A stretch of 4,891 nt of DNA from a virus. Its lineage: Duplodnaviria > Heunggongvirae > Uroviricota > Caudoviricetes. The notes beneath the pieces were generated by a model. That model had not been told where the DNA came from. It searched no databases and worked only from the letters and a program-made list of their open reading frames with translations. The DNA is taken from IMG/VR virus record IMGVR_UViG_2585427789_000012; one strand, 5' to 3'. A program made the position numbers and the translations under genes. Shown piece by piece: positions 266 through 4,891 of this stretch (position 1 is its first letter; every line of letters starts with the position of its first letter).

Positions 266-507
266 GCTGTCTGCTCTCCGGTTTTAACGTTGATGGTTGT
301 CACCTGTTCCGCTTCGGCAATCTCCCGTTCTGTCAGCGTGGCAAAGTTTGCCGCTGCCGTGGTCATGAATGCGCTTACCAGTTCGGGATGTGCTTTTGCG
401 TACCCTTCTCCCGCGTTGCGGTCGATGATTTTTATCGCCACCCTCAGCCAGTGTTCTGTCAAATCAAGGGCGTGAGATTGTGGTTTTTTTGCGTGCTTCG
501 TTGTCAC
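262..507 (-). CDS. Hypothetical protein, 81 aa
   Basis: ORF with GTG start at 507-505, preceded by SD GAGGT (515-519 on the minus strand) at 7-nt spacing. Its stop is coupled to the SSB-like start. No family recognised. Confidence 0.5.
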   Translation of the reverse strand: MTTKHAKKPQSHALDLTEHWLRVAIKIIDRNAGEGYAKAHPELVSAFMTTAAANFATLTEREIAEAEQVTTINVKTGEQTA

Positions 508-551
508 AGGCTTTACCTCACAGCAATAAAATAAAATTTTTGCATTTTAAC

Positions 552-781
552 CCTTCACCTGTTCACCTTTTGAGATTTTCCCTTTTTATTCATAATGTTA
601 AGGGGTGAACAGTTTCACAAAAACTATTCACCAACTGTTCACCACTGTTCACCCTTAAAGCTCAATAAATAATCAAAAAGGTGAACAGTGAATAGTTTGG
701 TGAACAGTTCACAAATAACTGTTCACCCTATAATGTACTGATATAAAAGATATTTATAACAGGGTGAACAGTGGTGAACAG
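552..781. repeat. Iteron array: nine perfect copies of CTGTTCACC/GGTGAACAG plus degenerate copies; crr/ori-like replication element
   Basis: CTGTTCACC at 559-567, 635-643, 645-653 and 719-727. The inverse GGTGAACAG at 604-612, 680-688, 699-707, 763-771 and 773-781. Degenerate copies at 552-559, 613-618, 627-632, 688-695 and 708-712. An AT-rich stretch (728-762) sits inside the array, which lies directly downstream of the replication gene. Confidence 0.8.
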
Positions 782-794
782 TTATTCCATAAGT

Positions 795-2609
795 TTAATT
801 TTTGCTGTCGTCATTTGTGACCGATGCACATGATGGCATCCAGTCTTCTGAATCCTCTGTCAGTGTCACATTTGAACGCAAACCGTGCTTCGTTTTCCGT
901 TTTATATACTCCCTGCCATATTCCGCCATTGCCCCCGGCATATCTTTACCGAAGCGCGTCAGTGTTACAGGTTTACCGAATCCGTGTGCCCTCATATATG
1001 CCAGATAGGCGTGATAAAGATACCTGCGCGGACTGAACGGAATAATTTCGGCATTACCCACTAACAGACCATCACACATTACCGACGACATGAGATAGCC
1101 ACAGAAGTCCACCAGCGAATCGCCCTCGCGTTTTATCACCAGAGCTTCTTCTGATTTCTGCTGCTCATACAGCAGGCGTTTAGCTTCGTCCTGGTCAGAA
1201 AAACGAGTAAGCAGATGGCGAATCACAACCGCCAGCTCTCCTTCTATTTTTTCTGCCAGCATGGGGTCGCGCTCGTTCTCCGGTACAACCTCCGAAAAAT
1301 TGAATATCACCCGACGACGTGAGATCCCCCCGCTGCGGTCACTGAATGACATGGCGTTATTGTTCACCGCCAGCACGACCGCCTGAATGCGTGTTGAGTA
1401 GGGGGCTTTATGCTTCGGGTCGATTGCCACCTTGTCACCGCCTGTAATAGCCTTAATTCCTGCGCCATCACCAGCGTAGCGGGTCATATCCGGCATGATA
1501 ATCAGCGAAAAGCCAACCACTAACGCGCGTTCCCTTGCATCTTCCAGCGCCTTCATGCTTGCCGATACTGTGTTGGCCTTACCCGCCAGCATGGTGCAAA
1601 TCTCCGCCATCACGCTTTTACCACTTCCCCCTGGACCTGTTACCTCAATGAATAACTGCCAGTCGTACCGGTTCGCCAGCACCATGAATAATGCAGCCAG
1701 CACGCGATCCGTCTTGCGGTCATTCTCTGCCACCGAGCAGCGTAACCACTTCCAGAAATTCGGCGCATGTGTTGCCAGCGTTTCCCCCTCTGCTGGTGGG
1801 CTGAAAGGTAATTCACTGGCAATTAACAACCAGTCGTTTTTGTTATGCTCCCGAAAATTACCTGTTCTGGTATCAAATACCCCGTTACTGAATCCAATCA
1901 GGTTACGGGCTGTATTCCCCATTACAGGCAAACTTAACTTCATGGTATCGACCGCCGATTTAATGGCGTTCTGCGAATAGCTGATCTCCGCATCAATGAA
2001 AATCTGCGCCATAGCACGCTGTAACTCTTTATCCTGAATCGGCTCCCATACAACGCCGTTGTAATGGTGAACAGTGTCAGAGTCGGCATGAATCGCCAGT
2101 TCACCGCCATAATGTGCCAGGAGAACTTCGCCGCGCTGGCTTGCTCCCATCTGGTTAAGCGCCAGTGGTGCGGCGCTGTCTTCTGTTTTTTTCTTAACAG
2201 GAAGCTGAATCACCAGACCATCAGAAAGATTCTGGCGCTCACGGGCCAGATATTCGCGCCAGTTCTGCACCTCCTGGCCGTGCATACCCTCAGGATAAAA
2301 ATTTGCATCCTGTACGCCTGCCGCCGCCAGCTTCTGACCAATCGCCTTTATCATTACTGGCGCAAGATATCCGGCCCTGAATATGCGCACGGATTTTCTG
2401 CCTTCCGGCACAATTTGCAGCTTATCCAGTTCGGATAACTGCTGCTCCCCAAGCCACACAGGAGGCTCATTATCTCCGGCCATACGCGCGTCATGTTCCT
2501 GCCATTGTTTTGCGTGTGACCAGGCATCACTACCCGCAAAAATAATGACTTCTGTTTCTTTGTGTTTTATGCCGCGTGACTGCTGTTTTACGTTCGGTGC
2601 CAGTTTCAT
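795..2609 (-). CDS. P4 alpha-family replication protein (D5_N-like region plus SF3-type P-loop NTPase; 'phage/plasmid primase, P4 family' C-terminal type), 604 aa
   Basis: Walker A VTGPGGSGKS near residue 325, followed by ITGGDKVAIDPKHK...NNNAMSFSDRSGGISRRRVIFNF, which is typical of P4-alpha/D5 helicase cores. SD AGGGG lies 6 nt upstream and the ATG overlaps the upstream stop (ATGA at 2606-2609). The first ~300 residues contain no Cys, so no zinc ribbon is present. Confidence 0.88.
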   Translation of the reverse strand: MKLAPNVKQQSRGIKHKETEVIIFAGSDAWSHAKQWQEHDARMAGDNEPPVWLGEQQLSELDKLQIVPEGRKSVRIFRAGYLAPVMIKAIGQKLAAAGVQDANFYPEGMHGQEVQNWREYLARERQNLSDGLVIQLPVKKKTEDSAAPLALNQMGASQRGEVLLAHYGGELAIHADSDTVHHYNGVVWEPIQDKELQRAMAQIFIDAEISYSQNAIKSAVDTMKLSLPVMGNTARNLIGFSNGVFDTRTGNFREHNKNDWLLIASELPFSPPAEGETLATHAPNFWKWLRCSVAENDRKTDRVLAALFMVLANRYDWQLFIEVTGPGGSGKSVMAEICTMLAGKANTVSASMKALEDARERALVVGFSLIIMPDMTRYAGDGAGIKAITGGDKVAIDPKHKAPYSTRIQAVVLAVNNNAMSFSDRSGGISRRRVIFNFSEVVPENERDPMLAEKIEGELAVVIRHLLTRFSDQDEAKRLLYEQQKSEEALVIKREGDSLVDFCGYLMSSVMCDGLLVGNAEIIPFSPRRYLYHAYLAYMRAHGFGKPVTLTRFGKDMPGAMAEYGREYIKRKTKHGLRSNVTLTEDSEDWMPSCASVTNDDSKN

Positions 2610-2905
2610 TTTTTACCCCTGAATCCGTTAATCATGGTTTTCAGCTTCTGGATGTTTGCCCGTGCCCTGGCGTTGCTGGTGGACACGTTATGCGGCGCGG
2701 TCTGTACCAGAGAAAAATCACGCCGGAACTGATAAACAGGCATCACGCAATCATATTCGTAACCTTCACGGCGGTAGGTTACGCGCCGTTCTTCCACGTC
2801 CTTAATCATTACCGTGCCGCCGTACTGGTCGCGGTAAATATCGCCGCGCGTAAATTTAGGGTGAGTGTTGCCACTGGCAGTTAAGCCAGAATATTTAAGT
2901 TTCAT
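2606..2905 (-). CDS. Hypothetical protein, 99 aa, translationally coupled to the replication gene
   Basis: ATG at 2905 with SD GGAG 10 nt upstream; stop overlaps the alpha-like start. No family recognised. Confidence 0.6.
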   Translation of the reverse strand: MKLKYSGLTASGNTHPKFTRGDIYRDQYGGTVMIKDVEERRVTYRREGYEYDCVMPVYQFRRDFSLVQTAPHNVSTSNARARANIQKLKTMINGFRGKK

Positions 2906-2910
2906 TATTT

Positions 2911-3144
2911 TTATTCTCCGGTGTGCTGTTCTTTATATCTGTCGTGCAATAGATCTATTTCTTGCAGTTCCATTATTACAGGCTCAAGAAGCGTTATTAA
3001 TGCCGTGGCAATTCTTGATTTTTGTTTGTCGCGTTCATTGTCGCCAAGTGTTTCAAGCCATATGCGCAATATTTCCAGCATGTTTTCACTGTGAGAAAGT
3101 GCAAGAAATGCGCGGCCTATTGTTTCGTGGTAAATATCACGCAT
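2911..3144 (-). CDS. Hypothetical protein, 77 aa (predicted helical)
   Basis: ATG at 3144 with SD GAGGA 8 nt upstream; it overlaps the stop of the upstream ORF by 8 nt (3137-3144). Its stop at 2911-2913 is 5 nt from the next start. Confidence 0.6.
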   Translation of the reverse strand: MRDIYHETIGRAFLALSHSENMLEILRIWLETLGDNERDKQKSRIATALITLLEPVIMELQEIDLLHDRYKEQHTGE

Positions 3145-3397
3145 GGCTTACATCCTCAGGAAATTTTCTTCTATAACGCGCCTCTGCCACATATTCCGCA
3201 TAATCGGCGGCGATATTCAGTACATCAAGCCCCGTTGATTTATATTCTCTCGTGGAAAGTAAGAAAAAAGCCGCTCTAATAAGCTCTGGCATTGACGAAA
3301 GCGCATCAGCCGCATCATCAGGAACGCCGGAAAATTCCTGTTTCAGGGAATTAAAACGATCATCACGCATAACCCCCCCCATTTTCACAATCAGCAA
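3137..3397 (-). CDS. Hypothetical protein; 86 aa from the TTG at 3397, more likely 77 aa from the ATG at 3370 (alternative ATG at 3382)
   Basis: The ATG at 3370 gives the same 8-nt ATGCGTGA start/stop overlap seen at 3137-3144 and is preceded by the G8 tract (3373-3380 on the minus strand) acting as an SD-like element. The N-terminus is therefore ambiguous. Confidence 0.55.
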   Translation of the reverse strand: MLIVKMGGVMRDDRFNSLKQEFSGVPDDAADALSSMPELIRAAFFLLSTREYKSTGLDVLNIAADYAEYVAEARYRRKFPEDVSHA

Positions 3398-3602
3398 TCA
3401 GGATGGCTTTAGCCTCATTCAGCGCCATATCAGCACTAAATTGCATAAGAGCCAGTGAGTGAGGAACGAAAGCCCCGGTATATTCTGTTTCGCTGGTGGC
3501 GTGCTTATGCGCCTTGTCTGCGATAACAGAAATATCAATCAGCGCGTGCATCAGCGTTTTGATGGCTTCGGCGGCTGCGTCCGGTGTGGTTTTATTGTGC
3601 AT
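3363..3602 (-). CDS. Hypothetical protein, 79 aa
   Basis: ATG at 3602 with SD-like GGGGGA 6-7 nt upstream; it overlaps the stop of the upstream gene by 11 nt. The C-terminal codons run through the G8 homopolymer. Confidence 0.6.
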   Translation of the reverse strand: MHNKTTPDAAAEAIKTLMHALIDISVIADKAHKHATSETEYTGAFVPHSLALMQFSADMALNEAKAILIADCENGGGYA

Positions 3603-3798
3603 AGGTTTCCCCCTGGCGAATACGGGCGGCGAATACCATCACGCAGCCATCAGGAGATTGCTGACGCGCTTCCTGTTCGCTGGTGGCCTCAATGGTAATC
3701 ACGCGCGGTTGTGCCGTGCTCAGGGCGATAAAACGCCAGATGTATTTATTCAGGTTGTACGAGTCCCGCCCTTGCGGGTGTCTGGTATAATTTCTCAT
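3592..3798 (-). CDS. Small protein, 68 aa, first gene of the leftward operon; possibly Icd-like (host cell-division inhibitor family)
   Basis: ATG at 3798 with SD GAGG at 5-nt spacing. It is the C-terminal 68 codons of the 382-aa track ORF (MRNYTRHPQGRDSYNLNKYIWRFIALSTAQPRVITIEATSEQEARQQSPDGCVMVFAARIRQGETYAQ). The Icd-like label is from recalled annotations of P4-like prophages and is not verified. Confidence 0.55.
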   Translation of the reverse strand: MRNYTRHPQGRDSYNLNKYIWRFIALSTAQPRVITIEATSEQEARQQSPDGCVMVFAARIRQGETYAQ

Positions 3799-3905
3799 AG
3801 CTGCCTCGATACTTCTGCTATCGTTGGTGGTTAGACGCCCTGCATGTGTTGCGAGCACTGCGGGGCGTTGCTTAATTTGAGTGACAAAACTCAAACTGTG
3901 CGCAC

Positions 3906-3935
3906 AGATTAAAATCATGTGTGCGCACATGTCAA
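3906..3935 (-). promoter_or_regulatory. Candidate leftward early promoter (-35 TTGACA at 3935-3930; -10 TAATCT at 3911-3906, 18-bp spacer)
   Basis: Perfect -35 hexamer on the minus strand with a moderate -10; predicted start near 3899, giving a ~100-nt leader before the ATG at 3798. Confidence 0.4.
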
Positions 3936-3967: not shown

Positions 3968-4003
3968 GTGCGCCCATAAAGTCCATTTAAGTGAGGTGCA
4001 TCA

Positions 4004-4201
4004 ATGTCTAGCGGTAACACAAACAACAAATCAGCAAAGAAAAATATTCGATTCCCACATGAGCTTATAGATGGGATTGATGCCAGCGTTGAACAAGAAA
4101 AATTAACTAATCCTAGTGCTAATTTTTCCGCATGGGTCTTAGATGCCTGTGGACGCAAATTAAAATATGAACAGCGCCGGAAGGCCAAAGAATCAGAATA
4201 A
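4004..4201 (+). CDS. Small DNA-binding protein, 65 aa; putative ribbon-helix-helix (CopG/Arc/ParD-like) regulator
   Basis: SD AGGT 6 nt upstream of the ATG. KKNIRFPHELIDGIDASVEQEKLTNPSANFSAWVLDA fits the RHH pattern of an N-terminal beta-strand followed by two helices. It is divergent from the early operon and next to the palindromic operators. Confidence 0.5.
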   Translation: MSSGNTNNKSAKKNIRFPHELIDGIDASVEQEKLTNPSANFSAWVLDACGRKLKYEQRRKAKESE

Positions 4202-4243: not shown

Positions 4244-4432
4244 ATGCAGGGCAACACAATGACCGATAAAGAATTGACCAAAACATTATCACCGACACGG
4301 AAAAGACGGCGCAGAAAGATAGAGCATGAATCAGAAAGATTCGCACCTTGTTCGTTTGCTCTTGAGAAATTCCTTAAAGAGCGCAGGAAAAAACTCTCGT
4401 TGCAAACCTTGGAACGAACCAAATCTGACTGA
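4244..4432 (+). CDS. Hypothetical very basic small protein, 62 aa (or 57 aa from the ATG at 4259)
   Basis: ORF containing TRKRRRRK; weak SD for the 4244 start, AGGG 9 nt upstream of the 4259 start. A terminator follows. Coding status is uncertain. Confidence 0.3.
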   Translation: MQGNTMTDKELTKTLSPTRKRRRRKIEHESERFAPCSFALEKFLKERRKKLSLQTLERTKSD

Positions 4433-4498
4433 TCACATTGCCCACCAGCCGCAAATGTGGCATTGTTGGTGATGCTTTTGTTTTCCCTTGTTCCCACT

Positions 4499-4527
4499 GG
4501 CGACCCTTTTGCGGTCGCCTTTGTTTT
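4499..4527 (+). terminator. Rho-independent terminator (stem GGCGACC/GGTCGCC, 7-nt loop, TTTGTTTT tail)
   Basis: Perfect 7-bp GC-rich stem at 4499-4505 and 4513-4519, followed by a U-tract at 4520-4527. A weaker bulged hairpin with a U-rich tail precedes it at 4443-4484. The reverse complement has no U-tract, so it is + strand specific. Confidence 0.65.
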
Positions 4528-4565
4528 GCCTGTTATCCGGCAATAGTGGCGCTTCACCACACGGT

Positions 4566-4574
4566 TGATATAAT
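4566..4574 (+). promoter_or_regulatory. Extended -10 promoter element TGATATAAT
   Basis: Perfect TATAAT at 4569-4574 with TG at 4566-4567; no good -35, which extended -10 promoters can lack. Predicted start near 4581. Confidence 0.4.
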
Positions 4575-4580
4575 TCCCCT

Positions 4581-4651
4581 GCACTGATCCATTTTTTTCG
4601 CAGCAGGTTAATTGTTCAGAAAGGCGGTTCCTTATCGGGGCCGCTTTTTTT
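4581..4651 (+). ncRNA. Candidate ~70-nt small RNA (from the extended -10 promoter to an intrinsic terminator)
   Basis: Predicted start near 4581. Terminator hairpin GCGGTTCC (4624-4631), loop TTATC, GGGGCCGC (4637-4644; two G-U pairs), then T7 (4645-4651). No ORF of note lies between them. Confidence 0.3.
4624..4651 (+). terminator. Rho-independent terminator (8-bp stem, 5-nt loop, T7 tail)
   Basis: Stem GCGGTTCC/GGGGCCGC with two wobble pairs, followed by TTTTTTT at 4645-4651. Confidence 0.55.
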
Positions 4652-4891
4652 ATGCCTGAAAATACCCGATAACATGGCTTTTTAGTTTCACCAGGACGAA
4701 CGAAGCCCCGCCCCTGTTCGGGCGTATATCCAGTATTCATGGTTAGATCTCTGTGTTAGTGGATGGGTGGCGGCGGTGCGCCGCCAGCCTGATTAGTGAA
4801 CTGCCTCGCGGCTGTCCTTCCATGCCAGAACTTCGGATAAAGACCAGCCAACGGAACGACCGCCGAGTTTACGCCGTGATGGGAATTGTCC

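Follow-up and report, generated by a model that had tools for sequence, protein, structure and literature searches.

Replication of the satellite phage P4 requires crr and is independent of DnaG, with the alpha protein looping ori to crr; P4 is also said, on the strength of work by Tocchetti et al. in 1999, to have an iteron-free ori2 inside alpha. SaPI origins, as reported by Ubeda et al. in 2007, follow the initiator-helicase gene immediately on its 3' side and contain an AT-rich segment flanked by iterons. Among Gram-negative PICIs, a pri-rep-ori fragment of EcCICFT073 sustains a temperature-sensitive plasmid, and deletion of rep or ori abolishes or strongly reduces replication (Fillol-Salom et al. 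2018, PMC6092414). The same study described the layout of the PICI origin as common to no other known replicon, and also drew a comparison with the SaPI origin (PMC6092414). The core of P4-like satellites, as used by SatelliteFinder, consists of int, psu, delta, sid, alpA, epsilon and alpha; capsid-forming PICIs (cf-PICIs) comprise int, a regulator, a primase, their own capsid, a connector/adaptor, TerS, TerL and HNH but lack genes for tails and holins (PMC10085698). The paper on cf-PICIs does not address their replication origins.

Here, we examined a 4,891-nucleotide stretch of viral DNA (hereafter the window) in which an array of short repeats lies directly 3' of a gene related to P4 alpha. 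From comparisons with P4, EcCICFT073 and a set of related loci, this array is very probably the complete vegetative replication origin of a cf-PICI of ~15 kb residing in yifB/comM of E. coli.

An array of twelve iterons beside the initiator gene

Nine exact copies of CTGTTCACC/GGTGAACAG, in both orientations, were identified within 230 bp (552-781). Dinucleotide-preserving shuffles gave an expectation of 0.05 exact 9-mers per whole 4.9-kb window, and more than one match occurred in none of the 200 shuffles, which excludes a chance origin of the array. Three degenerate sites, two of them recognised by reading against relatives, bring the total to twelve (Table 1). The AT-rich spacer flanked by the iterons is the least stable 35-mer of the window, with a nearest-neighbour energy of -34.2 kcal/mol compared to a window mean of -48.0 (sd 3.9). 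A palindrome, GTGAACAGTTCAC, with 6-bp arms about a central A, was found at 700-712, and is absent from relatives. The original prediction, made from the letters of the window alone, had described perfect copies of the repeat in both orientations together with degenerate ones, an AT-rich stretch flanked by them, and this palindrome, and on all three points it was borne out. The stop codon of the 604-aa ORF (795-797) lies 13 bp from the last iteron.

Two further exact matches, a 9-mer at 2066-2074(-) and an 8-mer at 1361-1368(+), fall within the 604-aa gene. Both were considered as an internal origin or autoregulatory site and rejected, given that relatives break both at synonymous positions, and these copies thus appear fortuitous. 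A search for DnaA boxes in 480-820 found none. An RNA gene was likewise rejected, as Rfam returned only plant microRNA models far under their thresholds (34 bits vs 249), matches which can be attributed to the inverted symmetry of the array.

Judged by alignment, the array is composed of two inverted six-site units, an ori1-like unit A and a crr-like unit B, separated by 26 bp. This assignment follows from alignments of the units with each other, with P4 ori1 and with the spacers of P4 crr; when flipped, unit B aligns over its full length with both unit A and P4 ori1. Inside the AT-rich spacer of unit A, TATCAGTACATTA at 731-743(-) fits the IHF consensus. Overlapping this match is a second motif, CAGTA[AC][AG]TTA, which adjoins the inverted iteron and is common to the window, EcCICFT073 (near 7050) and P4 ori1 (near 9365-9380) despite their differing iterons.

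Table 1. Positions of the origin components and of the initiator gene in the window.
Feature	Position	Strand	Description
Whole origin region	486-794		From the stop codon of the gene to the far edge of the exchanged cassette
A/T tract beside unit B	526-551		Aligns with the A/T tract that opens each 120-bp repeat of P4 crr
Unit B	552-653	+	Inverted second unit, crr-like spacer
Unit B sites	552-559 (degenerate), 559-567, 604-612 (inverted), 624-632 (one mismatch), 635-643, 645-653
Degenerate site CCTTCACC	552-559		Two mismatches; recognised by reading against relatives
Unit B spacer	568-603		36 bp, 75% AT
Degenerate site TATTCACC	625-632		One mismatch to the 8-mer core
Central spacer	654-679		26 bp, 81% AT; dyad centre between the inverted units
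Unit A	680-781	-	ori1-like; six sites around an AT-rich spacer
Unit A sites	773-781, 763-771, 719-727 (inverted), 699-707, 688-695 (degenerate), 680-688
Degenerate site TATTCACT	688-695	-	Two mismatches; recognised by reading against relatives
AT-rich spacer	728-762		35 bp, 80% AT; presumed DNA-unwinding element
Exact 9-mer sites	559-567(+), 604-612(-), 635-643(+), 645-653(+), 680-688(-), 699-707(-), 719-727(+), 763-771(-), 773-781(-)
604-aa alpha-like initiator	795-2609	-	Annotated 'DNA primase family protein'; corresponds to Pri-Rep in PICIs
C-terminal origin-binding domain, aa 496-592	834-1124	-	phmmer match to PDB 1KA8, E 3.3e-24
Presumed wing segment KRKTKHGLRSN, aa 570-580	870-902	-	Varies with the iteron core
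N-terminal Toprim-like domain, aa 1-136	2202-2609	-	Outside the exchanged cassette

Correspondence to ori1 and crr of P4

The octamer TGTTCACC had been named in the original prediction as the type I iteron of P4, an identification upheld by the P4 record (GenBank X51522), in which the same octamer is annotated as 'ori type 1 repeat' in both crr and ori. All exact copies of TGTTCACC in that record (n = 11) fall within crr (4291-4590) or the origin (9310-9413). Unit A is collinear with P4 ori1 (9295-9430) at a mean column identity of 78%, with iteron offsets, in gene orientation, of 0/10/53(inverted)/74/85/93 in unit A and 0/10/53(inverted)/75/86/96 in P4 ori1. In both cases, the first pair of sites is followed by a spacer of 35 bp (80% AT in unit A, 83% AT in P4 ori1), and the triple of unit A is spaced 11 and 8 bp, compared to 11 and 10 in P4. 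The spacer of unit B resembles those of P4 crr (35 bp, 69-71% AT) in both sequence and composition.

These correspondences modify two earlier expectations. The anticipated crr-like element directly 3' of the alpha-like gene was found in that position, but it is not solely crr-like, since its gene-proximal half corresponds to P4 ori1 and only its distal half has a crr-like spacer. Similarly, alignment to P4 crr and ori, which had been proposed as a check, recovered both elements and not crr alone, unit A matching ori1 and the spacer of unit B matching crr. Given that unit A is collinear with ori1 and that unit B is crr-like, the whole origin appears to be contained in the array. The array also has the layout by which Gram-negative PICI origins were defined, the same as that of EcCICFT073 (PMC6092414). 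These alignments reveal homology between the PICI origin and the ori1 and crr of P4, contrary to the uniqueness claimed for it in print.

Domain composition of the initiator and joint exchange of its helicase/binding part and the array

The 604-aa protein matched the Pfam families D5_N, DUF5906 and Pox_D5, as well as NCBIfam TIGR01613 (P4-family primase C-terminal domain), and is 49% identical to residues 313-776 of P4 alpha, corresponding to the SF3 helicase and C-terminal domain. PDB 1KA8, to which its own C-terminal domain aligns, is the crystallised origin-binding domain of P4 alpha. By homology, the protein is therefore classed as an alpha homologue with a P4-type origin-binding domain. 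Residues 1-136 form a confidently folded Toprim-like domain, to which no Pfam or NCBIfam family was matched and in the alignment of which the canonical Toprim acidic motifs are not recognisable; elsewhere, this domain is found fused to RepA/AAA_25 helicases. A zinc-ribbon DnaG-type primase region is absent from the 604-aa protein, the N-terminus of which consists only of the 136-aa Toprim-like fold. The mechanism of P4 thus cannot be transferred wholesale, and host DnaG may provide priming. EcCICFT073, which has the same N-terminus, replicates in DH5-alpha, so the priming factor, whichever it is, must be available in E. coli. A DUF4222 gene (2606-2905(-)) shares 4 nt with the beginning of the initiator gene and is conserved at this place in both EcCICFT073 and the circular element described below; its product may be an accessory replication factor.

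Comparison of the window with EcCICFT073 revealed 83% identity over 1-472 and 90% over 2188-3597, and an intervening stretch (473-2187) that is essentially unalignable. This block comprises the array and codons ~140-604 of the initiator gene. Correspondingly, the window protein and the Pri-Rep of EcCICFT073 share 97% identity in their first 136 aa and ~43% beyond. From position 486, the block is shared, at 88% identity, with the circular record NZ_CP148328. These alignments show an array and a helicase/binding part of the gene that have evidently been exchanged together as one cassette. Among relatives, the cassette of helicase, binding domain and origin is joined to at least three N-terminal kinds: the Toprim-like domain of 136 aa in the window, a different N-terminus in Serratia, and a zinc-ribbon primase of P4 type in proteins of 772-814 aa.

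NZ_CP148328, a 10.79-kb circular record deposited as a plasmid, carries the cassette within a complete PICI-like element (integrase, regulator, Icd-like protein, DUF4222 protein, primase-family gene, iteron array, and a ClpP/major-capsid fusion), and is probably an excised or episomal island. Its circular form weakly favours autonomous replication of the cassette; it is the only small circular carrier in the plasmid collection, which gives no sign of a regular plasmid state. Across 5426 complete E. coli genomes, the array was detected at an identity of at least 89% in 594, always beside a gene annotated as 'DNA primase family protein'. These carriers harbour the array at 658 places, with ~10% possessing more than one, and such multiple arrays of the same type in one genome argue against strict incompatibility between identical origins.

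Co-variation of the iteron core and a segment of the binding domain

In a comparative set of 72 related loci (one genome per species), nearly every locus has just one array, located 3' of the gene at a distance of 30-70 bp, with no further cluster within 6 kb. The core of the iteron is specific to the lineage (TGTTCACC, TGTCTACC, TGTCCGCC, TGTCCACC, TGTGCACC or TCTCTACC, and TATACAT/C in Xenorhabdus), and the layout of two units is retained in the TGTTCACC, TGTCTACC, TGTCCGCC, TGTCCACC and TCTCTACC lineages. Proteus relatives carry the ori1-like half alone, indicating that unit B is dispensable in some lineages. Two loci depart from the general arrangement in other ways: in Escherichia ruysiae the two origin units occur in a different order (7806-8150), and in Serratia marcescens the array retains few intact iterons (7365-7700) and may represent a decaying element.

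All users of TGTTCACC, P4 included, share the pattern K-R-[KH]-T-K-[HQN]-G-[IL]-[RQ]-[ST]-N in a short segment of the binding domain. P4 is only 49% identical to the window protein in the remainder of this domain, yet shares the TGTTCACC-type segment. Conversely, in close relatives with TGTCTACC, TGTCCGCC or TGTCCACC iterons, the segment is 30-39% identical and has an insertion of 5 aa, while the remainder of the domain is 78-85% identical; in the TGTCTACC-type protein, for example, the counterpart of aa 567-583 is KRKQCTRGPDKGRTISN. The variable segment comes after the third helix of the binding domain, and in the topology of winged-helix domains a DNA-contacting beta-hairpin follows the third helix (PMC2777425). 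On the basis of this topology and of the alignment with 1KA8, we presume the segment to be the wing of a winged-helix domain; an AlphaFold2 model of the domain (pLDDT 41) was too poor to support the assignment. Taken together, these comparisons show, at the level of sequence, that changes of iteron core across lineages are accompanied by changes in the presumed wing segment. This co-variation indirectly suggests that the protein encoded by the adjacent gene binds the array.

Apart from P4, the sole record matching the window in the phage collection was vB_KppS-Ant (LR881103), which is labelled 'Escherichia phage' and described as an 'induced prophage' of 16.5 kb, and which possesses the gene set of a cf-PICI and the same origin layout. 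Between this record and the window, the iterons are conserved and the spacers have diverged, a pattern that points to selection acting on the sites.

Gene content of the surrounding island

The window is 100% identical to the chromosome of E. coli E600003, where it sits in an island of ~15 kb that splits yifB/comM. In the RefSeq annotation (NZ_CM128598), the island, bounded by two fragments of yifB, comprises, in order, an integrase, an AlpA-like regulator, an Icd-like protein, small ORFs, a DUF4222 protein, the 604-aa protein and the array, followed by a hypothetical gene, SSB, a ProQ/FinO protein, major capsid protein, an HK97-type protease, portal, a head-tail connector, HNH, TerS and TerL. 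No sid, delta or psu is annotated in the island, and its annotated content corresponds to the published definition of cf-PICIs (PMC10085698). From its gene content, the island is classified as a capsid-forming PICI and not as a P4-type satellite. The original view of the window as a P4-like satellite replicon is consequently abandoned, given the lack of annotated sid, delta and psu and the presence of the island's own capsid, protease, portal, connector, HNH, TerS and TerL. The accompanying suggestion that a second, ori-type cluster might lie outside the window also found no support, as a search of the flanking sequence throughout the 15-kb island revealed no further iteron cluster, even when one mismatch was allowed.

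Several other features of the window concern the island at large. Between the divergent Icd-like gene (3592-3798, -) and a YlcI/YnfO gene (4004-4201, +), the palindrome TGTGCGCACA occurs three times (3897-3906, 3920-3929 and 3968-3977, the third with one mismatch), and these copies look like operators of the island's regulatory switch. The short, overlapping ORFs 3363-3602(-) and 3137-3370(-) match the N- and C-terminal halves, respectively, of the 154-aa phrog_2512, and a run of eight C at 3373-3380 (G8 on the coding strand) lies at their junction; the gene may be split, the tract may be slippery, or the sequencing may be in error. An AlpA-like helix-turn-helix regulator is represented by the 3' end of its gene (4793-4891(-)), which continues beyond the right edge of the window and is complete in the annotation of the genome record.

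A model of initiation and its alternatives

In the model we favour, induction would lead the island to express the 604-aa initiator, which combines an SF3 helicase with a winged-helix origin-binding domain at its C-terminus, like that of P4 alpha. The C-terminal domain would bind the twelve TGTTCACC sites in the two inverted units of six, upon which the 35-bp, 80% AT spacer of unit A, the homologue of P4 ori1, would melt first and admit the helicase. Unit B, as an adjacent counterpart of crr, would provide a second binding platform cooperating with unit A. With one hexamer assembled per unit, head to head, unwinding would then proceed bidirectionally, as at palindromic origins served by SF3 helicases. 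What the model says of binding, of where the DNA melts, of two hexamers and of the source of primers is inferred; the match of six sites to one hexamer is at present numerology, the triple of unit A being spaced 11/8 and that of P4 11/10. A point against the model is that the EcCICFT073 cassette, in which the role in replication was demonstrated, has a different iteron and shares only ~43% identity in the helicase/binding part.

Three other readings of the array were weighed against this model. In P4, the slot directly 3' of alpha holds crr and not ori1, and the resemblance of the unit B spacer to crr spacers, together with the iteron-free ori2 reported inside P4 alpha, could be taken to mean that the whole array is only a crr-type cis enhancer, with initiation occurring elsewhere, either at a second cluster or within the gene. 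We consider this extremely improbable, as unit A fits P4 ori1 site by site, including its 35-bp AT-rich spacer, the island contains no other cluster even with one mismatch allowed, and the equivalent segment of EcCICFT073 is the ori needed for plasmid maintenance (PMC6092414). A transcriptional role deserves mention because two gene blocks of the same orientation flank the array and nothing resembling a terminator was found there, such that transcription probably crosses the array and a bound protein would act as a roadblock. Since the initiators of iteron plasmids often double as repressors, the sites might serve mainly as an operator, either blocking or tuning read-through into the SSB and capsid genes or mediating autoregulation. 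A scan of 440-900 for promoters and terminators found, however, no terminator and one weak resemblance to a promoter, located on the opposite strand and not exceeding the count in shuffled sequence, leaving no convincing promoter in or beside the array; moreover, twelve sites with an unwinding element and homology to ori1 far exceed the needs of an operator, and the functional test of EcCICFT073 indicates replication (PMC6092414), making a chiefly regulatory array very unlikely.

The remaining alternative concerns unit B alone, which might act chiefly in the control of copy number or in incompatibility, through pairing of origins ('handcuffing'), instead of promoting initiation. It is less AT-rich than unit A while repeating its binding sites, and the Proteus relatives manage with the ori1-like half only. 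On the other hand, crr, its P4 counterpart, is required for replication and does not inhibit it, the layout of unit B has been kept across at least four iteron types, and some genomes carry the same array more than once. We therefore regard a unit B devoted chiefly to such control as very unlikely, although a function in copy control may coexist with one in initiation.

As an origin, the array is ordinary, widespread and of an already described type; given that origins of such architecture beside pri-rep have been shown to work, nothing about it is surprising in kind. What the present analysis adds is the homology of the PICI origin to P4 ori1 and crr, the fusion of these two parts as an inverted pair, and a specificity that tracks a short segment of the initiator. 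It locates the origin from which a very common E. coli island replicates, and links literatures on PICI and P4 origins that have so far been treated separately. In addition, the natural swaps of iteron and segment on an otherwise constant domain offer a ready guide to DNA recognition by this initiator family, and point to pairs of initiator and origin that would be orthogonal and of use in engineering. A more general proposal, which we judge unlikely, is that head-to-head units of six sites nucleate two SF3 hexamers, that specificity is set by a swappable C-terminal segment passed on with the iterons in a single cassette, and that PICI and P4 origins cross-fire or compete. P4-type satellites and the cf-PICI of the window come from separate satellite families that use different helper phages, and cross-firing or competition in one cell might be expected from the sharing of both segment and octamer with P4 alpha. 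Were this the case, the half-dozen classes of iteron and segment would represent replication compatibility groups that cut across families in Enterobacteriaceae.

Comparison with known replication origins

Among the closest known origins is that of EcCICFT073, which likewise lies immediately 3' of pri-rep, among the same neighbours (Icd-like, DUF4222 and pri-rep, followed by a hypothetical gene and SSB). The layout of its array is also the same, but its iteron is CTGTCTACC as opposed to CTGTTCACC in the window. P4 alpha has in common with the window protein the SF3 helicase, the C-terminal binding domain (1KA8) and the presumed wing motif, but contains a zinc-ribbon primase region which the window initiator lacks. 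Although the ori1 and crr units of P4 are mutually inverted as they are here, they lie ~4.7 kb apart (crr ending at 4590, the ori1 iterons starting from 9310), as compared to 26 bp in the window. Furthermore, P4 crr is a tandem pair of 120-bp units located directly 3' of alpha, the position at which the window has one unit of each kind with ori1-like unit A nearest the gene, and the t-alpha terminator that follows alpha in P4 has no equivalent between the gene and the array.

More distant systems resemble the window in part. Origins of SaPIs in S. aureus agree in their position and in the flanking of an AT-rich segment by iterons, but the iterons are unrelated and the Rep family is different. 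SV40 large T antigen and papillomavirus E1 are SF3 helicases that possess their own origin-binding domain and act at palindromic origins, where, as in the window, inverted sites lie around or beside an AT-rich segment. Their binding domain differs in fold and is N-terminal, whereas that of the window protein is C-terminal, and the sites of the window, twelve in number, are far more numerous; by analogy, the shared inverted symmetry suggests head-to-head hexamers at the window's array. The initiators of pSC101, R6K, P1 and RK2 are not helicases and need DnaA and DnaB. These plasmids share with the window repeated initiator sites by an AT-rich unwinding element and an adjacent initiator gene, but their iterons are direct repeats of 17-22 bp, in contrast to the iterons of 8-9 bp in both orientations found here.
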